From contig CAYYMD010000001.1 in assembly GCA_964472875.1 (NCBI GenBank), positions 11,505-75,504 of the forward strand: DNA of 64,000 bases, in the 5' to 3' direction. The stretch comes from an uncultured Planctomycetaceae bacterium. Lineage in GTDB: Bacteria; Planctomycetota; Phycisphaerae; SM23-33. How positions within the stretch are numbered: position 1 is the first letter of the stretch; every line of letters starts with the position of its first letter. Below the pieces are notes generated by a model. It ran no database searches and was not told the origin of the DNA. It saw only the letters and a program-made list of their open reading frames with translations. A program made the translations under genes and the position numbers. Below are positions 5,246-63,407 of the stretch, piece after piece.

Positions 5246-6526
5246 CTACTTCGTCAGTTCTTTCCAGAGTGCCTGCTCGGCCTCGTCGAATCTGGAAAAA
5301 GTATTTTGTATCTGTTCCTTAATCTTCAGCATCTGCGGATCGTCGGCGGGGATACCTTCCGGATGCGCCTTTATCAGTCCTGCAAGCTTTGCCATCGCCT
5401 GGTCGAGCTCAGATGCCCCGGCCGAGAACGCCCTGGCTGCATCGTGTATATTCTGCGAGCGAAGTTCCTTGTCCTCCGGCCTGTACAGCAACCGCCACGG
5501 ACTTCGGCGGATTTCCTTGCTGGCGGATTTAAGGTTGGCCGAAACCTGGGCCATGTTATCTATAATCTCATCCACGTTGCCACGATGCATCAGAACGATT
5601 TCCTTGGCGTTTTTGGAAACCGTACCGAAGTTCTTGACTATCTGGAGCACCTCGGTGTTGGTCTTTCGAAGTTTTTTGAGGATTTCAGCTACATCATCCT
5701 TGGTATAGGTTTCGATGGCCTTGGTCGTTTTGACTATCGACGTTAGAGACTTGTCTATTTTCGGCCGGGCATCGGTGGTTATTTTTTTTATGTTCGTCAC
5801 GGCCACGTGCACCTTGGCGATGATGGAGTCATCGCTTTCGCGGTCGAGTTCGGTGCGAATCGAGGTGGTTGCTTTGTTTATATCGGCTACACTCTTGCCG
5901 ATTTTGGCCAGCAAAGAATCCACTTTCTCCGGATTAGTCTCGTTTTTAAGCGTCTTGGTGATATCTTTGATATCAGTCATTGCAGTCTTCATGGTGTCGA
6001 CAATTTCATGAATCTTTGCAATCAGCGCATTTTTGACCTTGGGATTCATTTCCTGCTTGAGCGACTTTGAAATATCGTCGAGATTAGCCATAACCCCCGC
6101 GCGCCTGAGTGCTATGGGATGTTTCTCATCAGCCGGGGGTTTTTCGCTGCTACCCCTATCTGTTATTACCAACAGTCCCCCACCAATAGGCGGGACCTTA
6201 GCATGGGCCCGGCCATCAGTGTATATTTCCATTCCCTCCCGCTCTATCCTGGCTACGTAAATTGTTCTGCTGCGGTCAGGATCGAAATAAATTTTCGTAA
6301 TTTTGCCTATCGCGTCATCGTTGACTCTGACTTCGTTACCGACCTCCAGCCCGACCGAACCGGTGGATTCCTCCACGTAAAAGTGCGCCTCGGACGCCGT
6401 CGGCGCGAAAACCTCTGCCACGCCAAGCCATAGCACCACGGCAATGGTTACAAGTAACGCCGCTATAACAAAAATTCCCGCTATCAGTTCATTGTGTTGT
6501 TTTTTCGCCATGATGCTTGTCTCCAA
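5246..6526 (-). CDS. MlaD/Mce-family substrate-binding protein (single N-terminal TM helix, MCE domain, long C-terminal coiled-coil extension)
   Basis: N-term TM LIAGIFVIAALLVTIAVVLWL; MCE-like core GNEVRVNDDAIGKITKIYFD...GGGLLVITDRG; ~280-aa K/E/T-rich helical tail; immediately downstream of the ABC ATPase and permease. Confidence 0.75.
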   Translation of the reverse strand: METSIMAKKQHNELIAGIFVIAALLVTIAVVLWLGVAEVFAPTASEAHFYVEESTGSVGLEVGNEVRVNDDAIGKITKIYFDPDRSRTIYVARIEREGMEIYTDGRAHAKVPPIGGGLLVITDRGSSEKPPADEKHPIALRRAGVMANLDDISKSLKQEMNPKVKNALIAKIHEIVDTMKTAMTDIKDITKTLKNETNPEKVDSLLAKIGKSVADINKATTSIRTELDRESDDSIIAKVHVAVTNIKKITTDARPKIDKSLTSIVKTTKAIETYTKDDVAEILKKLRKTNTEVLQIVKNFGTVSKNAKEIVLMHRGNVDEIIDNMAQVSANLKSASKEIRRSPWRLLYRPEDKELRSQNIHDAARAFSAGASELDQAMAKLAGLIKAHPEGIPADDPQMLKIKEQIQNTFSRFDEAEQALWKELTK

Positions 6527-9533: not shown

Positions 9534-10220
9534 TCAACGACTGATGTTATATCGTTTTTTTATTTTCGTAACATATTCGTGTGCCCTGCGCGTCGGCTCG
9601 GGCAATCTTACGCCTTTAGCGGCACGTAGAGTCCAGCGTATTGCGTCCTCAAGCGTAACTCTGTGGCCCACCGAAACATAGACCGGCTTGACCGCCGTTC
9701 TCGTGCGCAGCACCGCTCCGATTACCCTGCGCTCGTGTCGAAGTTGTGTGCGGCAGCGGCGCTTTTGGCCCGGTGGGCGATGTTCACCCACAAGGCGGCT
9801 CTTGGCCACACCTATTGTGGGCACATCCAGCCAAAGTCCAACATGGCTGGCCAGGCCAAGCCCGCGGGGGTGAGCAACACCCTGCCCGTCACACATAAGC
9901 AGGTCGAAGGCGGGCATTTTCTTCAGCGCAGCGATGACAACCGGTGCCTCGCGAAAGGACAGCAGTCCCGGAACATACGGAAACTCACATGGCATGGCCG
10001 CCTCGGCGTCCGAGATTATTTCCATGGAGCCCGCTCTGCACAGCACTGCAGCAGCGATTATTTTTTTGCCGCCCTCGACAAACGCACAATCCACTCCCGC
10101 CACAGTGCTAACCTTTTTTCGCAACGGCGTCACGCGGACCTTCCCGGCCAGTTCGCGCTGAAGCGCTATCGCCTCCTTAGGTGTTACATCCCAGCGATGA
10201 TTTACATTTAGGCCAGGCAC
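9534..10220 (-). CDS. nfi: endonuclease V (deoxyinosine 3' endonuclease)
   Basis: YVPGLLSFREAPVVIAAL, DGQGVAHPRGLGLASHVGLWLDVPTIGVAKSRL, GHRVTLEDAIRW match the EndoV family. Confidence 0.8.
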   Translation of the reverse strand: MPGLNVNHRWDVTPKEAIALQRELAGKVRVTPLRKKVSTVAGVDCAFVEGGKKIIAAAVLCRAGSMEIISDAEAAMPCEFPYVPGLLSFREAPVVIAALKKMPAFDLLMCDGQGVAHPRGLGLASHVGLWLDVPTIGVAKSRLVGEHRPPGQKRRCRTQLRHERRVIGAVLRTRTAVKPVYVSVGHRVTLEDAIRWTLRAAKGVRLPEPTRRAHEYVTKIKKRYNISR

Positions 10221-16221: not shown

Positions 16222-17475
16222 ATGAAGCCGCACAAAACCACAAAAATTCATGACCTGCAGAAGGTTCTGGAAATTACGCGATCGATGGTTGCTGCCGAGG
16301 ATTTGCACTCGCTTCTGCAACTTATTATTGACAGGAGCATGGAACTTCTCGACGCCGAGCGTGCTTCTCTGTTTCTCTACGACCCCGACAATAATGAACT
16401 GTACAGCCGCATAGCCGCCGGCGTTGAGGAAATTCGCGTGCCCGCCAACAAAGGTATCTCCGGCGCTACCGTGAAAACGGGAAACACGATCAACGTCGCC
16501 GATGCATACGGCGATTCGAGGTTCAATCCGGATGTGGACAAACGTACGGGGTACCGCACACGAAACATCCTTTCGACTCCTCTGAGCGACCATATGGGCA
16601 ATCTGGTGGGCGTTCTACAGGTCATAAACAAGCGCAGCGGCAATTTCAGTGACTACGACGAGATGCTGGCAGAAACGCTCGGCGCTCAGGCGGGAGTAGC
16701 TATACAACGCGCTAATCTTATCGAACATTTCATGCAGAAACAGAGGATGCAGCGGTCACTTGAAATCGCCCACGAAATTCAGCAGGGCCTGTTACCGAGA
16801 GGGCAGGCGGCTATATCCGCATTTGACGTATCCGGCATCTGCGTGCCGGCCGATGAAACCGGCGGCGATATATACGACTTTCTCGAACTTCCCGGCGGCA
16901 ACTGGATGTTTATGGTCGCCGACGCTACGGGACACGGCGTCGGCCCTGCACTGATTGTAGTTCAAACCAGGGCCATGCTGCGGGCGGTGAGCATGTGCCA
17001 CGATACGTTACCCGTTGTAATGCAAACCGCAAATAACTTGCTTGTCAGGGACTTGCAATACACCCGCTTCGTGACGTGCTTCATGGGAATCCTGTCGCCG
17101 GATAACAGCCAACTCACGTATGCTTCCGCCGGCCATGGGCCAATGCTTTTCTACAGGCGCTGCGAGGATAAGTTCACAGAGGTTGCGGCTACGGCTCTGC
17201 CGTTAGGGGTGGATGAAGAAACTGCATACGATGAAATGGAATCTTTCAGTTTTACCTCAGGTGACTTCGTTGTAATCACCACCGATGGAGTTTTCGAAGC
17301 CGAGAACCCGGAGGGCGAGCAATTCACTATGGAACGCGTCAAAAAAGTTCTACACGAACACAGGGACTCACCGACGTCCGAGATGATAAGCACGCTTCGC
17401 GACAAAGTTAAGGATTTCACGAAATCTTCCATCCAAGGTGATGATTTAACGGCCCTGATTATTCGTAAAGACTAA
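16222..17475 (+). CDS. GAF-sensor PP2C-family (SpoIIE/RsbU-type) serine phosphatase
   Basis: N-terminal GAF (ERASLFLYDPDNNELYSRIAAG...GISGATVKTG); C-terminal PPM domain SLEIAHEIQQGLLP..GGDIYDF..MVADATGHGVGPAL..TTDGVFEAEN..GDDLTALI. Confidence 0.8.
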   Translation: MKPHKTTKIHDLQKVLEITRSMVAAEDLHSLLQLIIDRSMELLDAERASLFLYDPDNNELYSRIAAGVEEIRVPANKGISGATVKTGNTINVADAYGDSRFNPDVDKRTGYRTRNILSTPLSDHMGNLVGVLQVINKRSGNFSDYDEMLAETLGAQAGVAIQRANLIEHFMQKQRMQRSLEIAHEIQQGLLPRGQAAISAFDVSGICVPADETGGDIYDFLELPGGNWMFMVADATGHGVGPALIVVQTRAMLRAVSMCHDTLPVVMQTANNLLVRDLQYTRFVTCFMGILSPDNSQLTYASAGHGPMLFYRRCEDKFTEVAATALPLGVDEETAYDEMESFSFTSGDFVVITTDGVFEAENPEGEQFTMERVKKVLHEHRDSPTSEMISTLRDKVKDFTKSSIQGDDLTALIIRKD

Positions 17476-49709: not shown

Positions 49710-50261
49710 TTAGGTCTTCTCGACCTGCCAGTACTCCAGTTCCACCGGAGTGGCCCGGCCGAATATCATCACTGTCACGCGTACAAGTCCCTTGTCTACA
49801 AGAACTTCGTCCACGGTCCCTTCGAAATTCTCGAAGGCGCCTTCTTTGATTTTCACCTGGTCGCCTTTGGCGAAATCCACGGCCACAGGAGCGCCTTCCT
49901 GGGCCTTCTCCACCTGCATGAGCATTTTCTGCACGTCTTCTTCCTTCATCGGGATCGGTTTCCCGGAAGTCCCGATAAAATCACCCACGCCGGTTGTTTC
50001 CCGGATAAGGAACCATGCCTTTTCGGGAATTCGCCCGTCTTCCTGCGGCTCCATTTCAATAAAGACATAACCGGGATATAGTTTTCGGTCCACGGTCTTG
50101 GCCGCGCCTCGGCCGCGTGGGGCCGGGCGACGCTCGGTGGGCACGAGAATCTGACCGATAGTATCCTCGAGCCCTTCTATCTTTACCTTGCGTTCCAGGG
50201 CATCGCGAACCTGGGATTCCTTGTTGGAAGCCACTCTCAATACGTACCATTGTTTAGCCAT
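49710..50261 (-). CDS. nusG: transcription termination/antitermination factor NusG
   Basis: MAKQWYVLRVASNKESQVRDALERKV NGN domain; C-terminal KOW GDQVKIKEGAFENFEGTV. Confidence 0.95.
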   Translation of the reverse strand: MAKQWYVLRVASNKESQVRDALERKVKIEGLEDTIGQILVPTERRPAPRGRGAAKTVDRKLYPGYVFIEMEPQEDGRIPEKAWFLIRETTGVGDFIGTSGKPIPMKEEDVQKMLMQVEKAQEGAPVAVDFAKGDQVKIKEGAFENFEGTVDEVLVDKGLVRVTVMIFGRATPVELEYWQVEKT

Positions 50262-50331
50262 GTAATTCTGCCTGTTTGAAACAACCGGCCAACTCTTTAA
50301 TTCGGGCGTGAAGCATAATTATTTTGTATTA

Positions 50332-50748
50332 TCATTTCGGCGGAGCCGGCATTACACCCGCCCACTGAAAGAAAATCTGAAAGATAAGATCCACCACGAA
50401 AAGTATTATGGCAAACATAAAGGTGGTAATAATAACCACTTTGGTAGATCCTATAACTTCCTTTCTGCTCGACCAGGAGACCTTTTTCATTTCGCTTTCA
50501 GTAGCGATTAGAAAGTCCGCCGTATTCTGCCGGTTTACCATCCAGAACATAAAGAGACCTGCCGCTATTACCAGCAGGGTGGGTATGCCGTAGCTCAGGT
50601 AAATACCGATACTCTCAAGGCCCCGGAGCTTATCGCCCAGAAGGCCACTGAGGCGGACGGCCCCTATCGTAATTATAACCATCACACCGATGAACGTGAT
50701 GATTCGCACGTATTTGCCCTGTCCTTGTTTGTATACGTTTAGTTTCAT
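50332..50748 (-). CDS. secE: preprotein translocase subunit SecE (three-TM form)
   Basis: 138 aa, three hydrophobic helices, conserved position between tRNA-Trp and nusG. Confidence 0.8.
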   Translation of the reverse strand: MKLNVYKQGQGKYVRIITFIGVMVIITIGAVRLSGLLGDKLRGLESIGIYLSYGIPTLLVIAAGLFMFWMVNRQNTADFLIATESEMKKVSWSSRKEVIGSTKVVIITTFMFAIILFVVDLIFQIFFQWAGVMPAPPK

Positions 50749-50875
50749 TAATCTTTAATGTTTGTTGGGCGAAACTAATCCGGACCTTTTAAGATTCTCT
50801 CTACACTCGCTTGTTCGACTTCGCCCTTTTCGCCGGCGATTTCATGCATCCTTCCCGCCCGCCACCAGGGCTCAA

Positions 50876-50948
<73 letters not shown>

Positions 50949-51031
50949 TTGCCGGGTGTTATTCTGGGGTTTTGCGTTATTAGTATTGCGTTGGAATACA
51001 GCAGACACAACCGAACAGCAAACGCCGGGGG

Positions 51032-51199
51032 TTATTTTCTTTTTATCTTGTGGCTGGTGTGCTTCCGCTCCCGCGGGCAATACTTGCTCAGTGTCAGCTT
51101 CGGCATCCCACCGAGCGTACGCACTTCGGTGCGATAGTTCAGGTCCTTGCACTCGCTGCACTGCAGCCACACATATTCTCTTGCTTTGGCTTTTGCCAT
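51032..51199 (-). CDS. rpmG: 50S ribosomal protein L33
   Basis: Hand translation gives MAKAKAREYVWLQCSECKDLNYRTEVRTLGGMPKLTLSKYCPRERKHTSHKIKRK (55 aa); below ORF-track size cut-off; classic position between tuf and tRNA-Trp/secE. Confidence 0.85.
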   Translation of the reverse strand: MAKAKAREYVWLQCSECKDLNYRTEVRTLGGMPKLTLSKYCPRERKHTSHKIKRK

Positions 51200-51232
51200 A
51201 TTCGGAAAGCGTTTTTCTGTTTTCTAAGTGTT

Positions 51233-52441
51233 CTACTCGAGTATCTTGGTCACAACGCCTGCGCCGACGGTCCTGCCGCCTTCGCGAATGGCGAATCGCA
51301 ACCCTTCTTCCATGGCGATGGAAGTATTCAAAAGCTGCACTTCCATGGTGATGTTATCGCCGGGCATGCACATTTCCGCGCCGCCGAGAAGTTTAATCGT
51401 ACCGGTAACATCGGTTGTACGGAAATAGAACTGCGGCCGGTATCCGGTGAAGAACGGCGTATGGCGGCCACCTTCTTCCTTGGTCAGCACGTACACCTCG
51501 CCCTCAAACTTATGGTGCGGGGTAATGCTGCCGGGCTTGGCCAGTACCTGGCCTCGTTCGAGATCTTCCTTCTCAACACCTCGCAGCAGACAACCGACGT
51601 TATCGCCGGCCTGCCCCTGCTCAAGGGTCTTATTGAACATTTCAACACCGGTCACCACGGTCTTACGCGTATCGCCGAGACCGACGATCTCAATCTCGTC
51701 GCCGACGTTGACCATGCCGCGTTCGATGCGGCCAGTGCCGACGGTTCCGCGACCCTTAATTGAGAACACATCCTCCACCGGCATCAGGAACGGTTTGTCG
51801 ACGTCCCTCTCCGGTTCGGGGACGTACTCATCCATCGCTTCGATGAGTTCCATTATGGGCTTGGCGGCTTCTTCGTCTTCCGGATTGTTAAGGGCATTCC
51901 AGGCAGAGCCCTTGATTACCGGGACATTATCACCGTCGAACTCGTACTTGTTCAGCAGCTCGCGAACCTCAAGCTCCACCAGTTCCAGCAGTTCCTCGTC
52001 GTCGACGAGGTCGCACTTGTTGAGGAACACCACCAGCGCGGGCACATTTACCTGCCTCGCCAGCAGAACGTGTTCGCGCGTCTGGGGCATCGGGCCATCG
52101 GCCGCCGATACCACCAGTATTGAACCGTCCATCTGGGCGGCGCCGGTGATCATGTTCTTGACGTAATCGGCGTGACCGGGACAGTCCACGTGCGCATAGT
52201 GGCGCTTCTGCGACTCGTATTCAACGTGCGCGGTGGCGATGGTCAGAATCTTGGTCTGGTCACGTCTGCCCTGAGATTCCGACGCTTTCGCTATATCGTC
52301 GTAACTTCTGAAACTGGACAATCCCTGTTTTTCCAGTACCTGCGTCATCGCCGCAGTCAGGGTGGTTTTACCGTGGTCCACGTGTCCGATGGTTCCGATA
52401 TTTACGTGCGGTTTAGTCCGTTGAAAGACTTCCTTGGCCAT
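51233..52441 (-). CDS. tuf: translation elongation factor Tu
   Basis: [31 protein letters not shown]...; 402 aa. Confidence 0.97.
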
Positions 52442-52562
52442 CAGTTATACTCCTTGTACGTTTGTTTCGCGACTTTTCGCTTTATTCCTTTTAACTTTAG
52501 TTTCCCGTTTAATTCTGTAATCGTCCTCGGCATGCCATTTAAAGACAAGGTCAGGCGACCCA

Positions 52563-52634
<72 letters not shown>

Positions 52635-52818: not shown

Positions 52819-54036
52819 TTATTGCGCAACTACGTTTGAGAGTTTGAACACCGGCAGAAGCAGCGCTATGGCTATGCCACCGACTATAAGCCCCATTATG
52901 ATTATCATAGCAGGTTCTATAAGAGATGTGATGGCCTTGACCGACACAGACAGTTCCTCCTCGCAGAAGTCCGCCGCCTTCTCCAGCACTCCGGACAGTC
53001 GGCCGGTGCGCTCCCCCGCGTCTATCATTTGAGTCAAGGTCCGTGGAACCAGTTCATATTCGAAGAGCCGCTCCGAAAGCGTCGAGCCGGTCTTGACCTG
53101 TTCGGACAGGTCCGTCCACATCTGTGAATAATAATAGTTACCCGAAACCTCCGCGGTAATCTGCAGCCCTTCCAGGATTCCCACATCCGTAGAAACCATC
53201 GTGGCCAAAGTACGCATGGATCTGGCAAGAGAGGCCTTCCGGTACATAGGTCCTATTATCGGCATGTTAATTTTAATCTTGTCCAGCAGGATGCTTCCTT
53301 TTTGCGACCTGAAGTACATGTAAACGCCTACTATTATGGCAGCTACCGCCGGAATAAGCAGATACCAGTAATCCGTCATGGCGTGGCTGATGTATAGAAG
53401 GATTTGTGTCGGTGCAGGCAAAACGGCGCCTTTGCCGCTGTAAATTTTCTCGAAACGAGGCAGCACCAGCGTCAGCAGCGCAATGATGACTATGGTACAG
53501 AAACTCAACATACATATCGGATACGTCATGGCGCCTTTTATCTGTTTGCGGGTCTTTCTCTCCGACTGCATGTACTGGCTGGCCCGCTGAAGCATCTGCC
53601 CCATTGTTCCCGAGGCCTCGGAGGCCCGCACCAAAGCAACGAAAAGTTTCCCGAACACTTTGGGATGACTCTCCATCGCCGAAGATAGTGTCTGCCCGGC
53701 CTTAACCTGCTCGGACAGGTCGCCGACCACCTCCGTAAGCTCCGGCTTGTCCGACTGCTGGGCGATGGCGTCCAACGCCTCATCCAGCGGGACTCCCGTA
53801 TCAACCATAACCGCCAGTTGGGTGGAAAAGAATATGACCTGGTCGCGCTTTATCTTTTTTCTTCGGCCAGTGGTACCGGTGGTGTCCGATGCCTGTTCTT
53901 GATGCGGGCGAATTGAAACTACGGACTTGCCCTCTCGCCTGAGCATACCGGCGGCTTCGTCCTTGTCCCTCGCGGCCAGGACACCGGCGTCCATTCTTCC
54001 TCCTCCCATACGTGCGTGATAAGCAAATTTAGGCAT
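52819..54036 (-). CDS. type II secretion / type IV pilus platform protein (GspF/PilC family)
   Basis: 405 aa inner-membrane protein with two T2SS-F repeats; adjacent to GspE/PilB ATPase. Confidence 0.85.
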   Translation of the reverse strand: MPKFAYHARMGGGRMDAGVLAARDKDEAAGMLRREGKSVVSIRPHQEQASDTTGTTGRRKKIKRDQVIFFSTQLAVMVDTGVPLDEALDAIAQQSDKPELTEVVGDLSEQVKAGQTLSSAMESHPKVFGKLFVALVRASEASGTMGQMLQRASQYMQSERKTRKQIKGAMTYPICMLSFCTIVIIALLTLVLPRFEKIYSGKGAVLPAPTQILLYISHAMTDYWYLLIPAVAAIIVGVYMYFRSQKGSILLDKIKINMPIIGPMYRKASLARSMRTLATMVSTDVGILEGLQITAEVSGNYYYSQMWTDLSEQVKTGSTLSERLFEYELVPRTLTQMIDAGERTGRLSGVLEKAADFCEEELSVSVKAITSLIEPAMIIIMGLIVGGIAIALLLPVFKLSNVVAQ

Positions 54037-54085: not shown

Positions 54086-55882
54086 CTAAGCCGCCGTGGC
54101 CCTGAATACCTCCTCCACAGTGGTTATACCGGCCGCTACTTTAGACATGCCGTCCTGTCGGAGAGTTACCATACCGCGTTCTATCGCAGCGGCCCGGATT
54201 TCGTCCCGCGTAGCCCCGGCATTGATTTTTTCAGTTATCTCGTCGTCCGGAACAAGCAGTTCGTAAATTCCTATTCGTCCTCCGTAACCGGTGCTGCGGC
54301 ATTTCTGGCATCCTGCGCCCCTGTAAAATTTTTCCACTTGCCCCACTTCCCGTTCGACTGCGCGTCGTATGCCCGCCGAGGGTTCGTAGGGCTCCTTGCA
54401 ATTGGTGCAGATTTTTCTGACCAGCCGCTGGGCCAGAACCGCCTCCGTGGAAGCGGCCACGAGGTAGGGCTCCACACCTATATTAACCAGGCGAGTGACC
54501 GCACCGGGCGCGTCGTTGGTGTGCATTGTGCTGAAGACCAGGTGACCCGTAAGCGCCGCCTGCACTGCAATCCGGGCCGTCTCTTCATCGCGTATCTCGC
54601 CCATCATTATAATGTCCGGGTCCTGTCGAAGCAGCGACCGCAGCGCCGAAGCGAACGAGAAACCGATACGCTCGTTAACCTGGAACTGGTTAACGCCGGT
54701 GAGATTGTATTCGACCGGGTCCTCCACAGTGCATATGTTCACCTGCTCGTTGCACAATTCATTAAGGACGCTGTAAAGGGTGGTGCTCTTGCCGCTTCCG
54801 GTCGGGCCGGTTACCAGGACAATTCCGTTGGGCACAGTTATCACCTTCCGCCAGGTCTTGAGCGTCTCATAGGCGAAACCGAGTTTCTCAAGATTCACGA
54901 GAACCCGGCGGTTGTCGATTATCCTGATGACCACTTTTTCGCCGTGCTGGCCGGGCATGGTGCTTACGCGCAGGTCGATAGGCCGGCTGTTCATCAGCAC
55001 GTGTATGCCGCCGTCCTGCGGCAAACGCCGCTCGGAGATATCCAGGCCCGCCATAATCTTAATCCGGCTGACAATAGCGGGAAGCATTTTGTAGGGTGGC
55101 TTCAGTTTCTCGAATAAAATACCATCCACCCTGTATCGCACGCGCAAAGAATTTTCATCCGGTTCGATATGTATGTCGGAAGCCCCCTCCCTGACGGCGT
55201 TGAACAGCAGATAATTTACCAGTTTGACCACCGGCGAACCTTCCGCCGCCGCCTCCAGGTCTGTTATGTCCTCTATCTTGTCTTCGACTATGGATACCTC
55301 ATCCGGCATCTCATCTTCGAATATATCGTCTATGACAAATACATTTGCCGAGGGAAGGTGAGTCTCCAGGGTGGCCTTTATATCGTTGCCGGTAGCGCAT
55401 ACCACCAGCACTTCACATCCGGTCAGACGAGCCACTTCTTCCATAAGGAATACATTGGCTGGCTCGTTAACGGCCAGTGAAAGGCGGTTTCTGACCTTGA
55501 ACAGCGGAAGTACAGTATGTTTGTCGAGAAATTCCCGGGGCAGCACATCGATAATTCTCGGGTCGGCCAGTCTTGGAGATATCCTGGCAAACGGAACGCC
55601 ATACCCAGCCGCCAGCGCCTGCATGATTTGCTCTTCGGTACATATCTCGAGTTTCTGAAGAACTTCGCCGAGCAGCAGATTACTTCCTGAATTTCGCTGA
55701 TAGTCCAGTGCCTCTGCGAGCTGCTCCTCGTTCAAGGTACCCTGCCTTATGAGCAACTGGCCCAGAGGCAGGGCGGACTTGGAGCCGGGACGCACTGGCC
55801 TGTTCGCTTCCTGAGAAGAACCCTCAGAAGCCACATGGACCTGCTCCGGGTCGGCGTTATTGTCTTCTGCTTTTGAAATCAT
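54086..55882 (-). CDS. type II secretion / type IV pilus assembly ATPase (GspE/PilB family) with N-terminal MshEN-like domain
   Basis: Walker A GPTGSGKST, Asp/His boxes, Zn tetracysteine CTNC...CQKC; N-terminal T2SSE_N with tandem LGxxLIxxGxLxxxxLxxALxxQ-like motifs. Confidence 0.9.
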   Translation of the reverse strand: MISKAEDNNADPEQVHVASEGSSQEANRPVRPGSKSALPLGQLLIRQGTLNEEQLAEALDYQRNSGSNLLLGEVLQKLEICTEEQIMQALAAGYGVPFARISPRLADPRIIDVLPREFLDKHTVLPLFKVRNRLSLAVNEPANVFLMEEVARLTGCEVLVVCATGNDIKATLETHLPSANVFVIDDIFEDEMPDEVSIVEDKIEDITDLEAAAEGSPVVKLVNYLLFNAVREGASDIHIEPDENSLRVRYRVDGILFEKLKPPYKMLPAIVSRIKIMAGLDISERRLPQDGGIHVLMNSRPIDLRVSTMPGQHGEKVVIRIIDNRRVLVNLEKLGFAYETLKTWRKVITVPNGIVLVTGPTGSGKSTTLYSVLNELCNEQVNICTVEDPVEYNLTGVNQFQVNERIGFSFASALRSLLRQDPDIIMMGEIRDEETARIAVQAALTGHLVFSTMHTNDAPGAVTRLVNIGVEPYLVAASTEAVLAQRLVRKICTNCKEPYEPSAGIRRAVEREVGQVEKFYRGAGCQKCRSTGYGGRIGIYELLVPDDEITEKINAGATRDEIRAAAIERGMVTLRQDGMSKVAAGITTVEEVFRATAA

Positions 55883-55950: not shown

Positions 55951-56334
55951 TCACGTCGGCAAGCGCTCTTTAATCGCCTCCTCGCTGTTTTTATAGGTCT
56001 CAAAGGCCGAATCCAGTCGCGTGATTTCAAGTATCTTGCTTATGTTCTCATCACATCCGCACAACCTGAGGCGTCCCATGCGTTCGGCCAGTGTGTCCTG
56101 CAGGTCCAGAAAATATTCCAGCGCCGCACTATCAATGGCAGGAACGTTATGGAGATCCAGAACTATGTCGATTATCCACGGCTCTGCTCCGGCATTTTCC
56201 GGCGAAGATTGCCCCCTATCCTCCTCCAGTTGATGTTCGACCGTTCGGATAAGCTGTTCCAGCGAATCCTCGGTAAGCTCTCCTTTAATGGAAAGTATGG
56301 CCGCATGACCATATGTCTCTGTAGTTATGTTCAT
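55951..56334 (-). CDS. STAS-domain protein (anti-sigma-factor antagonist-like)
   Basis: SpoIIAA-like fold; HNVPAIDSAALEYFLDL motif; 4-nt overlap with upstream HD-GYP gene stop. Confidence 0.75.
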   Translation of the reverse strand: MNITTETYGHAAILSIKGELTEDSLEQLIRTVEHQLEEDRGQSSPENAGAEPWIIDIVLDLHNVPAIDSAALEYFLDLQDTLAERMGRLRLCGCDENISKILEITRLDSAFETYKNSEEAIKERLPT

Positions 56335-58022
56335 ATTTCACTCTCCGAGGCAGCACCAGCTATTCCCTCCAGTTCACACGGAGCCCCTGAGCCGATTTTA
56401 AAGGAACTTCTTCGGCCGATATTGCTGACGAATTCGCTCAAATCTATTGAAAGCAGCCTTTCGGCCAGGGCCGGGTCGAACTGTGTGCCCGCATGGCTTT
56501 TTATTTCTTCTATGGCCTCTTCCAGCGGAAGTGCTTTGCGATAGGTTCTGTCGGTAATCATCGCATCGAGACAATCCGCCAGACCTACAATCCTGCCCTC
56601 TATGGGTATCTGTTCTCCGGCCAGTTGCCGGGGGTATCCTTTGCCGTCAGGACGTTCGTGGTGTGTCAAAATTCCCCTGGCCACGCCCCGCCATTGGCGA
56701 AAACCACCAATGATTTTGGCGCCGGTGACGGGATGCTGTTTAATCTTTTCGAATTCGGCTCTGCTCAGTCGGTTCGTCTTTCGCAGCGTCTCTTCGGGCA
56801 CTCCAATCTTTCCTATGTCGTGCAGCAGCCCGGCGAGATAAACCTGCTTTACCTTCTCAGCATCCAGGCCGGATTCTTCGGCCAGCCGTTTGGATATAAG
56901 CGCCACTCGCTGTGAATGGCCGCTGGTGTACGGATCCTTGGCGTCAATCGAGGCAGTCAGCGCGTGCAGTACGCCTATAAGCAAATCCTGCAGGTCGGCA
57001 TAAAGCATGCTGTTGGCCAGGAACACGCCGGTCTGATTGGCAATGGAACTGAGCAACTGGAGGTCGGCGCTGTTAAAGTCGCCGGATAGTTTTTCGGCAC
57101 CTATTAACAACCCGACCTGTCTGTCCTCAGCAACAATAGGCACGGCCACCAAACCGCGCCTGGGTTCTTCGACGCCCTGGGCCGTTGGTATAGGAAACTG
57201 ATTATCCAGTAAAACGCGACGGCCTGAATCCATTCTCCGGTTTATCTCCTCCGCCAATCGCAGTATTTTTTCATCGGAGACCTTTTCCTGACCTGCCCTG
57301 ACCACCATGTTTTCTTCCCGTCGCTGTCGCTGGGGGTGAACAACAGCCCACGCGGCCGATATGTTCATTACCTCCAGCAGTTCGTTACATGCGTTCTGAA
57401 GGAAATCCCCTACCTGCTGGGTCACCTTTATGGAACCGCTTATTCTATATACCAGCGATAGTTCTTCATAAGTTCTGGCCAGGTTGGTGCTCATCGTGGC
57501 CAGTTCATCATCGGCGATTTGTTCGTTTAGCAGGTGCTCCAGCAGCCAACCCAATATACTGATGATATGTTCGGCCTGGGATGCGCTGTGTCGGCAGTAT
57601 TTTTCGGCGGCATTTCTGGTCGCCTGGCGGTCAAGATGGAGATGATCGCACATTCGCGAAAAATGTTCTTCTTCAAGAATTTCAAGGGGCGGGAAACACG
57701 CCACCACCGCGCCGGCTATACGTCTTCGCCGACGGACAGGCACGCCCAGCTGAAAACAGCCCGTCCGGCATTGATTTATGATGTTATTTCGCTGGGCCAT
57801 CGCCTTTTCAGCGACATCCTGAGCGCTTTGCCTGCAGGGCGCTTCGGCGCCGAGCATGAAGCGGCAGAACCTGCCGGAGGGACAGAAACCTTCTGCGCAT
57901 CTGCCGGTTTCGTCCCATGTCGAAAGATGCAGGCCCAACCGCTCCATGCGGGCGCGTAGCTCCTCGGCTACCGCTTTGGGAAGCGGTAGAATCCTCTGTG
58001 AGGCCGTTTCCAGTCTACTCAT
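56331..58022 (-). CDS. multi-domain HD-GYP c-di-GMP phosphodiesterase (Cys-rich N-terminal region + GAF + HD-GYP)
   Basis: HD-GYP signature LHDIGKIGVPEE...HHERPDGKGYP; preceding GAF-like domain; N-terminal CxxxCPSGRFCRF...CRQ...CRTGC. ORF is open to 58223 but ATG at ~58022 (MSRLETAS) overlaps the receiver stop as ATGA. Confidence 0.8.
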   Translation of the reverse strand: MSRLETASQRILPLPKAVAEELRARMERLGLHLSTWDETGRCAEGFCPSGRFCRFMLGAEAPCRQSAQDVAEKAMAQRNNIINQCRTGCFQLGVPVRRRRRIAGAVVACFPPLEILEEEHFSRMCDHLHLDRQATRNAAEKYCRHSASQAEHIISILGWLLEHLLNEQIADDELATMSTNLARTYEELSLVYRISGSIKVTQQVGDFLQNACNELLEVMNISAAWAVVHPQRQRREENMVVRAGQEKVSDEKILRLAEEINRRMDSGRRVLLDNQFPIPTAQGVEEPRRGLVAVPIVAEDRQVGLLIGAEKLSGDFNSADLQLLSSIANQTGVFLANSMLYADLQDLLIGVLHALTASIDAKDPYTSGHSQRVALISKRLAEESGLDAEKVKQVYLAGLLHDIGKIGVPEETLRKTNRLSRAEFEKIKQHPVTGAKIIGGFRQWRGVARGILTHHERPDGKGYPRQLAGEQIPIEGRIVGLADCLDAMITDRTYRKALPLEEAIEEIKSHAGTQFDPALAERLLSIDLSEFVSNIGRRSSFKIGSGAPCELEGIAGAASESEI

Positions 58023-60010: not shown

Positions 60011-61246
60011 TTATCGGCCGCCCAACGGCGCCATAGAAACCTCCTGCGACGAAGCTGCGGCATCGTCGTCCTGACGCAGTTTATCGAGCAACGCGCGGGC
60101 AAGTTTGCTGTCGGGGTCGATTTCGAGTGCCTTGGCGTAACACCTGGCCGCCTCAGCCCGCTCATCCCTGGCCGTATTCACCATACCAAGCAGACACAAA
60201 AGGGGCGCATCGGGTTCCCCAAGAGCCAAGGTTCTGTTGAGCACCTCGTCGGCCTGCGAGACACGGTCGGTCTTCAAGAGTGCATAGCCGAGCAACATAG
60301 CGGCATTGCTGTTTGCAGGTTTTTTTGACAGCGCCTTCCTTGTAGAGACAACAACACCTTCCAAATCGCCGCAGGCCAGTTCAGCCCTCGCCAGTTTCTC
60401 GTAGAGTTTGGCGCTGTCCCCTCTCTTTTTGACCGCTTTTTGGTAAGCGTTGCGGGCCTTGATGGGTTCGCCTGTGGCCATGTGACAATCGCCGAGCATC
60501 GCGAACACCCATGCCGGAGAATCCGCACTGGCGGCCAGTTCGTCAAGATGGCGCCTCGCTTCCTCATAACGGCCGGAAAGATATTCCGCCTTGGCCAGTG
60601 CCCGCAGATAACCCACATTTTCAGGGTCGAGATCGCAGGCCTGACTGTAGTATTCGGCTGCGGAATCGTATTCATCGCGCATCATTGCAATGCGGCCGCC
60701 AAGCTCGTACATGGAGGGGTCGTCATCGGCCTGCGATATATGGCTCTCCACCTGCAACTGCGCTTCACGGATGCGTCCCATCGCCACCAGAACCTCCGTA
60801 ACTGCATGCACGGCGTCCATATTGCGGTTATCCAATGCATAGGCCTGGCGGTAACTGTGAATTGCCTGTTGAAGGTTATCCGCTTTTTCCTGTGCAACGC
60901 CGAGGAGATACCATACCCGCGCAGAATTCGGCCGGTTGCTTTTTACCTGTTCAAACTGTTCTATCGCCTCTTGATAGCGGCCCTGTTCGATGCAGACTTT
61001 ACCCAGCAACATCCTTGCGTCTACAAAGTTCTCATCCAGTGCCAACGCACGAGCGGCATTGCTGTGGGCCTGGTCCAGTTCGCCGACCTTCAGATGCTCC
61101 TTGGCCACCTTGAAAACCACTTCTGCCCGGGCTTTGTGCCACTTTTCGTATACTTCCTTCTTATTGTCCTTTTTGAACAAAGCGACGTTTTGGCATCCTG
61201 ATGTCACTGCAAGGATTACTGCCGCCGCTATTATATATTTTTTCAT
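60011..61246 (-). CDS. TPR-repeat lipoprotein (PilF/PilW-like candidate secretin pilotin/assembly factor)
   Basis: Signal + lipobox AVTSGC; ~9 TPR repeats across 411 aa; sits between the secretin and sensor kinase genes. Confidence 0.6.
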   Translation of the reverse strand: MKKYIIAAAVILAVTSGCQNVALFKKDNKKEVYEKWHKARAEVVFKVAKEHLKVGELDQAHSNAARALALDENFVDARMLLGKVCIEQGRYQEAIEQFEQVKSNRPNSARVWYLLGVAQEKADNLQQAIHSYRQAYALDNRNMDAVHAVTEVLVAMGRIREAQLQVESHISQADDDPSMYELGGRIAMMRDEYDSAAEYYSQACDLDPENVGYLRALAKAEYLSGRYEEARRHLDELAASADSPAWVFAMLGDCHMATGEPIKARNAYQKAVKKRGDSAKLYEKLARAELACGDLEGVVVSTRKALSKKPANSNAAMLLGYALLKTDRVSQADEVLNRTLALGEPDAPLLCLLGMVNTARDERAEAARCYAKALEIDPDSKLARALLDKLRQDDDAAASSQEVSMAPLGGR

Positions 61247-61340: not shown

Positions 61341-63407
61341 CTATTCTTGCTTGCCGGACTGGCTCATCTGGCCGGTATTTTTCGCCTCATCCTGTCCGGC
61401 ATTGTTGCTCTTGCCGGCCGGTGTGTCTGTTCGGCCTTGCGGCCGCGGCTTCATATCCGGACGTTTCGGTCCTGGAAGAGGATCAACATACCTCTTCTGG
61501 AAACCGAAAGTATCCCTGACTTTCTTATCTTTAATCATGCCCGCATCACGTGGACGATTCGGAGGAACTACTCGAGGATAAGGTTTGCCGAGATCGTGCA
61601 TCATAATGTGTTTGATTAGATATTTGATGCTGGAGTGGCGAAACTCATCCGCCCAGTACGCCTGTTCTGTAAGACGTTCTTTCAGGCGGACCGCCTGTAT
61701 CATCCTCGGCTCCAGTGACAGGGCGTTATCCACATACCACAGGGCCTCCTGCGGCCTTCCGGCCCGCATCGCCTTTCTTGCCTTGCGCATGTAGCCCTGA
61801 GCGATGCGCTCGCGGGCCCACCACTGGACACCCTTGCGGCTGCCGATGTAATAACGGTAAACGTTGCCTTTCATCTGTTCTCCGACCGCTTCGGCGGCGT
61901 CCTGCTTGATTATGTGCGGGGTGATAAGGACGATTATTTCTCTTCGGGTAGTTTCATCCTTTGTACCGCGGAAGGCGGCGCCAAGGTATGGCACATCACC
62001 AAGCATGGGTATCTGGTTGCGACTCGTTGTTGTCTTTTCGCGGAACAGCCCGCCTATTACTATGGTCCTTCCGTCACGAACCATAACGTTGGAGGTCACT
62101 TCCGTGGTCTCCTCACTGGGCAGGGCCAGTTCACCCTGAACCTGCACGCTGCCTATTGAATCTTCGGGGTGGAGCTCCATCCGGACGTAGCCGTCCTTGC
62201 CCACGTAAGGCCTGACCACCAGCCGCGTGCCCGTTTCCAAGAATTCGACGGTCTGCGTGGCTGTGGTTTCGGTTATAGTCGTGGTTATGTAGCCGTCGCG
62301 GTTGCCGACCATCACCTCGCCCCGCTGCTTGTTGACCACGAGTATTTTTGGATTGGCCAGAACAGTAACGTCCGTTACGGACTCCAGCGCTCGAACGAAA
62401 AATGACACGTCATTGCTGAGAAAGCCAATGCTGACACCGCCCTCGGGTACTATGCCCGAGAAATCCGTTCCAACCTGACCGGCCCGGACTCCGCGTAGAG
62501 CGTCGCTTTCGAGGCCGCCGGTGGTCATGTCGCCGATCCCGCCGTTGCTCGTGGCCGAGCCGATGCTCTGGAAGTCGATGCCGGCCAGCGTATTCATGTC
62601 TATGCCGAGATAGTTTTTCTCGGTGAGCTTGGCGCTAAGAATGGTGGCCTCTATGAGCACCTGTTCTGGTTTGACGTCGAGGCGCTGCACGATTTTGCGG
62701 ACTTTCTCGATATTCTCCTTGTAATCACGGACAACCAGGACGTCATCGGTCGCGTAGGAGTTGCCGCCGGCCTCAGTGTCCGAGGTCTCGATGCCCATCT
62801 CAGCTTCCGGAGTAAGCGCTATGGCGCCCTGGTCCGAGAGAACCGGCTCTATAAGCGTCTTGGCGTCCTTGGCGGTAACGTATGAAAGGTGGAAAACCTC
62901 CACGGAGACCTTTCTTTGGGCCTTGCGGATCTCCTGGAGTTGTTCGGGCGTATATACGTAAATGAAATTTCCCTTCTCTACGTAAACGTATCCGGTGGAT
63001 TTAAGGACCGCCTCCAGGGCCTCATCGAACGTCACGCCGTAAAGGTCAGCCGTAACCTCGCCGGCAACCTCTTTGGTGGCGATTATATTCTTGCGTCCCT
63101 GCGTGCTGAGCATCTGTAATACGCCGCGAAGGTCCGCTCCCTGGACGTGTATTTCGAAAGTGCCCGGCCGGGTCATCTTTACAGGGCCGCTTTGTTCACC
63201 GGCCGGCTTGGCGGCGCCGGCGCTGTCATCCCCCTCGGCGGGGCCTGTGGTAGTCGTTTGGCCACCATCCGAAAATAGCCGTCCCAGAAAGGTGTCTTCT
63301 CCCGGGGCGACACCCGCAGATATAAATACAACCAGGACCGCTGCCACCGCAATCCGGGCACCAATGCCCTTGAATCCATTCATTTTTAAACTCCTCTTAT
63401 TTTTCAT
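61341..63407 (-). CDS. secretin (GspD/PilQ family) with ~190-aa C-terminal extension
   Basis: N0/secretin_N domains (ATKEVAGEVTADLYGVTFDEALEAVL), secretin core (VLIEATILSAKLTEK...GDVPYLGAAFRGT..EIIVLITPHII), then extra C-terminal region with TPR-like segment. Confidence 0.9.
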   Translation of the reverse strand: MKNKRSLKMNGFKGIGARIAVAAVLVVFISAGVAPGEDTFLGRLFSDGGQTTTTGPAEGDDSAGAAKPAGEQSGPVKMTRPGTFEIHVQGADLRGVLQMLSTQGRKNIIATKEVAGEVTADLYGVTFDEALEAVLKSTGYVYVEKGNFIYVYTPEQLQEIRKAQRKVSVEVFHLSYVTAKDAKTLIEPVLSDQGAIALTPEAEMGIETSDTEAGGNSYATDDVLVVRDYKENIEKVRKIVQRLDVKPEQVLIEATILSAKLTEKNYLGIDMNTLAGIDFQSIGSATSNGGIGDMTTGGLESDALRGVRAGQVGTDFSGIVPEGGVSIGFLSNDVSFFVRALESVTDVTVLANPKILVVNKQRGEVMVGNRDGYITTTITETTATQTVEFLETGTRLVVRPYVGKDGYVRMELHPEDSIGSVQVQGELALPSEETTEVTSNVMVRDGRTIVIGGLFREKTTTSRNQIPMLGDVPYLGAAFRGTKDETTRREIIVLITPHIIKQDAAEAVGEQMKGNVYRYYIGSRKGVQWWARERIAQGYMRKARKAMRAGRPQEALWYVDNALSLEPRMIQAVRLKERLTEQAYWADEFRHSSIKYLIKHIMMHDLGKPYPRVVPPNRPRDAGMIKDKKVRDTFGFQKRYVDPLPGPKRPDMKPRPQGRTDTPAGKSNNAGQDEAKNTGQMSQSGKQE

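Follow-up and report, generated by a model that had tools for sequence, protein, structure and literature searches.

Analysis of a 64,000-nucleotide stretch of DNA from an uncultured Planctomycetaceae bacterium (Phycisphaerae, Planctomycetota; contig CAYYMD010000001.1; the whole stretch is referred to below as the window) identified a gene for a PilB-type ATPase of type IV pilus assembly whose N-terminus is an MshEN/GSPII domain, on the evidence of profile hidden Markov models (HMM), sequence alignment and predicted fold. Judged by its motifs, this domain appears to belong to a distinct subtype of the MshEN receptor domain: its two motifs are separated by 7 residues, and the second motif starts with Leu and lacks the usual terminal Gln. 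Genes for a receiver (REC), an HD-GYP phosphodiesterase and a STAS protein precede the ATPase gene, in an order conserved throughout the clade. The ATPase and the phosphodiesterase probably constitute a hard-wired local switch for cyclic di-GMP (c-di-GMP), in which a variant MshEN receptor on PilB is paired with a dedicated HD-GYP sink for the control of a type IVa-like pilus. The coordinates of all features are collected in Table 1.

Against N-domains of known structure, the N-terminal 190 residues of the ATPase gave matches to Geobacter PilB (E=7e-23) and Vibrio cholerae MshE (1.5e-9), and also to Thermus PilF and Myxococcus PilB. The NCBIfam model NF053729 ('c-di-GMP_motif, MshE-related') matched residues 39-91 with 48.1 bits (cut-off 38, E=7e-13), and a profile of the N-domain retrieved 18,289 related cluster representatives. 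The Pfam model PF05157 ('MshEN') matched residues 94-176; this match covers the C-subdomain only, is silent on the motifs and was rejected as motif evidence.

An AlphaFold2 (AF2) model of residues 37-192 (predicted local distance difference test, pLDDT, 84) showed helices at positions 4-10, 16-28, 35-41 and 47-57, followed by an alpha/beta unit. The top Foldseek matches, 5HTL, 8PDK, 8PFA and 7LKM, had a probability of 1.00 and template modelling (TM) scores up to 0.84, and shared the two-subdomain fold. The model gave a TM of 0.82 with c-di-GMP-bound MshEN (5HTL; root-mean-square deviation 2.4 A), 0.81-0.84 with PilF GSPII-B (8PDK/8PFA) and 0.72-0.74 with the Xanthomonas citri PilB-PilZ complex (7LKM; 7LKO is the same complex), whereas the values for the non-binders were 0.60 (GSPII-A) and 0.56-0.67 (XpsE).

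The initial annotation, made from the letters of the sequence, had assigned residues 39-62 to an MshEN motif, followed by a second, degenerate copy. The first assignment was borne out by the NF053729 match and by the motif itself: motif I, with P in place of R at position 1 and T in place of I/F at position 11 of the strict consensus, has LG, G10, L17, L21 and Q24, and carries at position 1 a residue that the published relaxed motif ([RKPN]) allows. It agreed with 10 of the 11 constrained positions of the relaxed pattern, a score reached by 6 of the 67,671 six-frame 24-mers of the window. Since transmembrane segments and non-coding frames of the window also reached 10/11, validation by pattern was dropped, and HMM and structural homology were used instead.

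Motif II has LLG, I17 and L21, with E instead of G10 and G instead of Q24; in the alignment with MshE, G93 of the ATPase stands opposite Q61. It agreed with the relaxed pattern at 7 of 11 positions (failing at 4), a level that some 4% of random 24-mers attain, and it is therefore validated by homology, through the NF053729 match and the MshE alignment, and by its place inside a homologous domain, not by pattern. On that basis the second copy proposed in the initial annotation is real. The span given there, 55630-55770, holds motif I and omits the last 9 residues of motif II, which extends to 55604. The low information content of the relaxed pattern, and of motif II in particular, might suggest that a leucine-rich helical segment unrelated to MshEN resembles it by chance, but this explanation is excluded for practical purposes by the HMM E-value, the domain alignments, the fold match and the number of profile-related representatives.

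Conservation of the motifs was analyzed in 76 distinct members of the clade. In motif I, G3 and Q24 were invariant and G10 was found in 70 sequences, while position 1 was occupied by Q (59), R (8), P (6), K (2) or H (1). In motif II, L1, L2, G3, E4, C12, L21 and A22 were present in all 76. Both LG pairs, the leucine-triangle positions, the motif I Gln and the motif II Leu1 were thus kept without exception. The leading Leu of motif II had been taken for a sign of degeneracy; it corresponds instead to the residue which, in PilF GSPII-B, stacks on guanine and contributes to the affinity of 6 nM; the consensus has been widened to (R/K/L)LG (PMC11731258). Residue 81 of the ATPase (motif II position 12; window 55640-55642, minus strand) is a Cys throughout the clade and V, A, I, L or T in more distant members of the subtype.

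The spacer was 7 residues long in all 109 homologues that could be parsed by the motif pattern, and in all parsed loci of the clade, instead of the 5 residues of a 53-residue unit. The spacer of Geobacter PilB is also of 7 residues, so that length by itself is not strictly defining. The combination of features was tallied in the top 150 of the 18,289 N-domain representatives (50% identity level). Among these, the 7-residue spacer, the Leu start and the non-Gln end of motif II co-occurred in 57 of 58 cases, and where Arg/Lys accompanied a spacer of 4-6 residues, the motif II Gln was mostly retained. The subtype accounted for 52 of the 150 representatives, all of which (52/52) kept the motif I Gln.

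The gene neighbourhood was examined in a census of 83 non-duplicate loci with ATPase identities of 55-90%, obtained mainly by a metagenome scan with the N-domain alignment; a single-protein scan of genome contigs gave only three close relatives. Counting the loci with enough flanking sequence in each case, the STAS gene was directly upstream of pilB in 79/79, HD-GYP upstream of STAS in 54/54, REC upstream of HD-GYP in 51/51, the PAS kinase upstream of REC in 42/45 and pilC downstream of the ATPase gene in 41/43. The same placement of HD-GYP and STAS was seen in all of five subtype members that are more distant (P0132, P0136, P0151, P0179 and P0198). In 28 out-group PilB/GspE loci, neither HD-GYP (0/28) nor a GGDEF motif (0/28) was found within the flanks. 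The pairing of an HD-GYP gene, two genes upstream, with the ATPase had been pointed out in the initial annotation; the gene is indeed on the same strand with the STAS gene between, and the linkage proved to be far stronger than could be seen from the letters of the sequence.

In the window, REC and HD-GYP overlap by 4 nucleotides (58019-58022), as do HD-GYP and STAS (56331-56334), which suggests translational coupling of the three genes and, possibly, a stoichiometric complex of their products. A scan of the cluster for promoters and terminators gave nothing above shuffled expectation.

Some loci differed in their outer genes. No PAS kinase was found upstream of REC in L077, L088 and L091, which come from one metagenome (Ga0123353), and L003 and L089 had no secretin/TPR genes between the gene in PilP position and the kinase; the REC/HD-GYP/STAS/pilB core was unchanged in all of them. 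In L116 (9691-17731), a distant subtype member, pilC was not downstream of the ATPase gene, its place being taken by a Wza-like polysaccharide export gene, a gene for a TPR protein of 1638 aa and a tyrosine-kinase-like gene (AAA_31), which hints at a link of PilB to exopolysaccharide export.

One locus, L120, has a 6-residue spacer, a Gln-ending motif II and the STAS-pilB pair (its STAS gene, 5663-6004, overlaps pilB by 4 nucleotides), without HD-GYP, REC or kinase. Part of the linkage may therefore be independent of c-di-GMP, and the pairing of STAS with PilB seems to be older and wider than the association with HD-GYP.

The catalytic motifs of the HD-GYP domain are intact: LLHDIGK, HHERPDGKGYP and ADCLDA (DxxDA) aligned with those of the active enzyme PmGH (4MCW), and also with V-cGAP3 (5Z7C), likewise active. 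The closest solved relatives thus include both a c-di-GMP enzyme (PmGH) and an enzyme acting on cyclic GMP-AMP (cGAMP; V-cGAP3). This raises the alternative that the asymmetric site of PilB is tuned to another ligand, 3'3'-cGAMP or linear pGpG, with the HD-GYP protein as the matching hydrolase. By whole-chain E-value the best PDB match of the latter was indeed the cGAMP-specific V-cGAP3 (7.8e-41), MshEN binds cGAMP weakly according to Wang et al. (2016), and the covariation of spacer, Leu and non-Gln end marks a distinct subtype. Per domain, however, PmGH scored higher than V-cGAP3 (124 against 108 bits), and the data give no pointer to a cGAMP synthase. Guanine recognition in MshEN occurs through backbone amides of the conserved LG-x residues, and these residues are retained in both half-sites. 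We regard a ligand other than c-di-GMP as improbable.

The initial annotation had described receptor and phosphodiesterase as a self-contained input-output pair. This was overstated, since no cyclase is encoded nearby and the PAS kinase and receiver supply input; the module comprises these two proteins and the invariant STAS protein as well. The source of c-di-GMP lies elsewhere, as no GGDEF motif was found in the window.

Binding of c-di-GMP by the PilB N-domain cannot be read off the motif. The proposed check against an MshEN HMM and at the conserved positions succeeded as regards the score, both LG pairs and the motif I Gln; the motif II Gln was absent in 76/76 sequences of the clade, in which position 24 was G (46), A (25), S (2) or N, V or T (1 each). 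When known domains were scored with NF053729 as controls, this ATPase obtained 53.9, close to the proven non-binder PilF GSPII-A (53.1), and the binders GSPII-B, GSPII-C and MshE obtained 63.4, 62.2 and 83.7. As a non-binder also passes, the match shows homology and not function, and it was rejected as proof of binding. In the literature, GSPII-A with its perfect consensus restored still did not bind, and sequence alone does not predict c-di-GMP binding by MshEN domains (PMC12002112).

Several of these observations weigh against a c-di-GMP receptor. Besides the control scores, the restored GSPII-A and the weak pattern match of motif II, the two hydrogen bonds that the motif II Gln normally gives to the ribose-phosphate are absent here, and no more than 36 of the 76 clade members retain the Gly turn of motif II (position 10). 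Locus L120 and the lack of a GGDEF motif in the window point the same way, and no experimental work on any Gln-less member with a 7-residue spacer was found in the literature searched. In GSPII-B, the change of the motif II Gln to Glu weakened binding 77-fold, still leaving a dissociation constant (Kd) of 460 nM, and only the double mutant abolished binding (PMC11731258).

These points could also be due to the N-domain being a GSPII scaffold without nucleotide binding, whose conserved surface docks the STAS protein, the phosphorylated receiver or the HD-GYP protein (as a trigger enzyme), the phosphodiesterase serving other targets through the cellular c-di-GMP pool. In favour of docking, besides the score equal to that of a proven non-binder, the missing Gln and the non-binding restored mutant, the N-domain of Xanthomonas PilB, one of the top fold matches (7LKM), binds PilZ and not c-di-GMP; L120 keeps STAS next to pilB without HD-GYP; and a Nostoc system that controls type IV pilus motility has a STAS protein, HmpV, as its output (PMC6495340). 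Yet XpsE and Xanthomonas PilB have lost most of the key residues (8 changes in XpsE), whereas the LG pairs, the leucine triangles and Q62 are invariant here, and a solvent-exposed invariant Gln and a Leu at ligand-contact positions would not be needed for the stability of the fold. The model is, moreover, nearer to the conformations of binders than to those of non-binders, and the HD-GYP linkage is specific to the subtype with the 7-residue spacer. Docking without nucleotide binding is thus a serious explanation, which we nevertheless hold to be rather unlikely. Binding is favoured by the invariance, across the clade, of both LG pairs, the leucine-triangle positions, the motif I Gln and the motif II Leu1. 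On balance, it is somewhat more likely than not that the PilB N-domain binds c-di-GMP at physiological concentrations.

Starting from the observed homology, predicted fold, residue conservation and synteny, we infer the following scheme for the local switch, of which the conditional parts are the binding of a ligand, the direction in which PilB is regulated, the contact between receiver and HD-GYP protein, and the contacts of the STAS protein. The N-domain of PilB would bind one c-di-GMP across its four-helix bundle, as MshE and PilF GSPII-B do, and occupancy would license or tune PilB activity, leading to pilus extension and adhesion. The coupled REC, PocR-GAF-HD-GYP and STAS genes would provide a dedicated local sink for the messenger. 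The PAS kinase would phosphorylate the receiver, and receiver, GAF and PocR inputs would together control the HD-GYP domain, in the manner of a split RpfG-type REC-HD-GYP protein; HD-GYP activity would then empty the PilB site and turn assembly down. The STAS protein may act as an additional adaptor close to PilB. There is precedent for parts of this scheme: c-di-GMP bound to MshE promotes pilus extension (PMC7096442), and in CtPilB allostery links N-domain and ATPase domain (PMC6957770). A more speculative extension, for which we claim little likelihood, is that the Gln-less subtype with the 7-residue spacer co-evolved with REC/HD-GYP/STAS, that phosphodiesterase and ATPase are held in a physical complex, possibly by STAS, and that the altered half-site has another affinity window or ligand preference (3'3'-cGAMP, pGpG).

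The closest prototype is V. cholerae MshE (5HTL), which has the same MshEN-T2SSE architecture and two-subdomain fold, tandem 24-residue motifs, LG, leucine triangle and motif I Gln. It differs in its 5-residue spacer, in that both motifs start with Arg, and in the terminal Gln of motif II; the ATPase of the window has a spacer of 7, Pro at the start of motif I (Gln in most of the clade), Leu at the start of motif II and Gly/Ala at its end. No dedicated phosphodiesterase for MshE was found in the literature covered. The GSPII-B domain of Thermus thermophilus PilF (8PDK, Kd 6 nM) shares the LLG start of motif II, with Leu stacking on guanine and no Arg in the site, but retains the terminal Gln of each motif and has a spacer of 5 residues; PilF carries three tandem GSPII domains, and no HD-GYP/STAS neighbours have been reported for it. 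GSPII-A of the same protein (9G1W), the proven non-binder, resembles the domain described here in its near-equal NF053729 score and in a degenerate motif II without terminal Gln. It lacks, however, the motif I Gln (H33) and the Gly of the second LG (A41), and its motif II starts with Ser; in the present domain all three positions are intact or favourable.

In Xanthomonas, RpfC/RpfG and FimX-PilZ-PilB likewise bring a two-component-controlled HD-GYP protein and c-di-GMP input to bear on the PilB N-domain. There, PilB is without MshEN motifs and senses c-di-GMP via FimX and PilZ, the genes do not form one operon and HD-GYP carries REC in the same polypeptide. In the present operon the receiver has a gene of its own, translationally coupled, and the motifs are on PilB itself. 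In Myxococcus xanthus MXAN_2809 (MshEN-HD-GYP-REC-DUF4388), and in REC- and GAF-MshEN-T2SSE fusions, the same set of domains occurs in single polypeptides, whereas in the present operon they are on separate proteins, with STAS added. Natural fusions of the types REC-MshEN-T2SSE, GAF-MshEN-T2SSE and MshEN-HD-GYP-REC are listed by Wang et al. (2016), and such fusions support a functional coupling of the domains of the operon.

For the STAS protein, the nearest parallel is the Hmp system of Nostoc punctiforme (HmpU/V/W), in which a STAS output regulates type IV pilus-dependent motility through an unknown effector (PMC6495340). In the STAS protein of the operon, a conserved Ser of the phosphorylatable type ends the motif F-[IV]-D-S, and a GAF-SpoIIE phosphatase of the matching type (PP2C, RsbU-type) is encoded 40 kb away in the window (16222-17475, plus strand). 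As this class dephosphorylates STAS proteins in partner-switching and the Ser is conserved, the phosphatase is a candidate partner. The operon itself differs from Hmp in having no partner-switching kinase/phosphatase, Hmp has no known c-di-GMP link, and the likeness is known for the STAS fold only. The STAS protein of the window also contains a 13-residue insertion, RGQSSPENAGAEP (residues ~40-52, window ~56180-56220, minus strand), absent from all aligned relatives, including L001.

The ATPase core occupies the C-terminal two thirds of the protein (T2SSE, residues 213-594, E=1e-135). GPTGSGKST (Walker A), DPDIIMMGEIRD, GHLVFSTMHTN and CTNC...CQKC (tetracysteine) are readable in the sequence, the core having Walker A, Walker B, His box and tetracysteine. 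Neither equivalog model reached its cut-off: TIGR02538 (PilB) matched residues 40-597 with 617.6 bits (cut-off 675.65), and TIGR02533 (GspE) gave 616.7 (cut-off 630.25). By these scores the ATPase represents a divergent lineage between the PilB and GspE models. Gene context identifies it as PilB of a type IV pilus and not as GspE of a type II secretion system, because pilC lies downstream and the secretin gene upstream in the window, and pilMNOP lies upstream of the secretin gene in a relative. In that relative, L033, genes for PilM_2, PilN and PilO, a 202-aa gene in PilP position and the secretin gene were found upstream; the same holds for L116. The gene in PilP position, the secretin gene and the gene for a TPR lipoprotein-like protein precede the regulatory genes.

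NCBI holds an identical ATPase (100%, P0001), and about 120 homologues with 73-79% identity come from metagenome-assembled genomes of Phycisphaerae/Planctomycetota. Ahead of motif I the ATPase has a low-complexity N-tail of ~38 residues (window 55769-55882, minus strand); most homologues are ~570 aa long and have only ~10 residues there. A GTG start at codon 30, which would drop the tail, was considered and rejected. The upstream ATG is probably the real start, since the 90%-identical L001 also starts with MIS... and has a comparable tail (L001 ~9895-10021).

Table 1. Features of the pilB region (positions in the window; residues are those of the ATPase)
Feature	Position	Strand	Evidence or remarks
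PilC/GspF platform protein	52819..54036	minus	Two Pfam T2SSF matches, E=3.6e-57
PilB-type type IV pilus assembly ATPase, 598 aa	54086..55882	minus	Disordered N-tail, MshEN/GSPII N-domain, T2SSE core
Whole GSPII/MshEN N-domain	55355..55774	minus	Four-helix bundle + alpha/beta subdomain; AF2, Foldseek, Pfam
MshEN motif II, variant half-site, LLGEVLQKLEICTEEQIMQALAAG	55604..55675	minus	Residues 70-93
Inter-motif spacer RNSGSNL, 7 residues	55676..55696	minus	Residues 63-69
MshEN motif I, PLGQLLIRQGTLNEEQLAEALDYQ	55697..55768	minus	Residues 39-62
Anti-sigma-antagonist-like STAS protein, 127 aa, adjacent to pilB (upstream)	55951..56334	minus	Pfam STAS E=1.8e-15
PocR-GAF-HD-GYP phosphodiesterase (predicted), 563 aa	56331..58022	minus	Pfam HD_5 E=3.5e-40, GAF_2, PocR
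Stand-alone receiver (REC), 136 aa	58019..58429	minus	Pfam Response_reg E=1.7e-25
Membrane PAS histidine kinase, 480 aa	58521..59963	minus	Pfam PAS, HisKA, HATPase_c
TPR protein, N-terminal lipoprotein-like signal (AVTSGC)	60011..61246	minus	Pfam TPR families; conserved in most relatives
Secretin (PilQ-like)	61341..63407	minus	Pfam Secretin E=1.5e-40, Secretin_N, STN

The TPR protein begins with MKKYIIAAAVILAVTSGC, a lipoprotein-type signal, and may be a secretin pilotin similar to PilF/PilW/Tgl. On its other side the operon borders on tRNA-Thr, tuf (EF-Tu), tRNA-Trp, secE and nusG (window 49710-52634), with what we take, by the sizes and order of the open reading frames, to be the ribosomal-protein and rpoBC cluster downstream. 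This junction is shared by L001, whose EF-Tu is 97% identical; in other relatives dnaJ or polysaccharide-export genes were found there.

MshEN is one of two truly widespread c-di-GMP receptors, and its presence on a PilB-like ATPase is already well known: MshEN-T2SSE proteins occur in 'most bacterial phyla', including Planctomycetes, according to Wang et al. (2016). What is new is the Gln-less subtype with the 7-residue spacer and its clade-wide REC/HD-GYP/STAS operon. In the literature searched, no paper was found that linked Phycisphaerae to c-di-GMP or pilB, and none that linked STAS to PilB or HD-GYP. To our knowledge, hardly any work has addressed c-di-GMP signalling or the regulation of pili in Planctomycetota.

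The finding is a sound lead for the biochemistry of c-di-GMP and pili and no surprise in kind. Motif-based predictions of MshEN receptors are unreliable, and a large natural subtype without one of the two contact Gln residues, but otherwise complete, would test which residues matter. The invariant REC/HD-GYP/STAS/pilB operon offers a clean candidate for local c-di-GMP signalling, with sink and receptor encoded, and probably made, together. The pairing of STAS with PilB could, in addition, supply an effector where type IV pili are under the control of STAS-type outputs of partner-switching.

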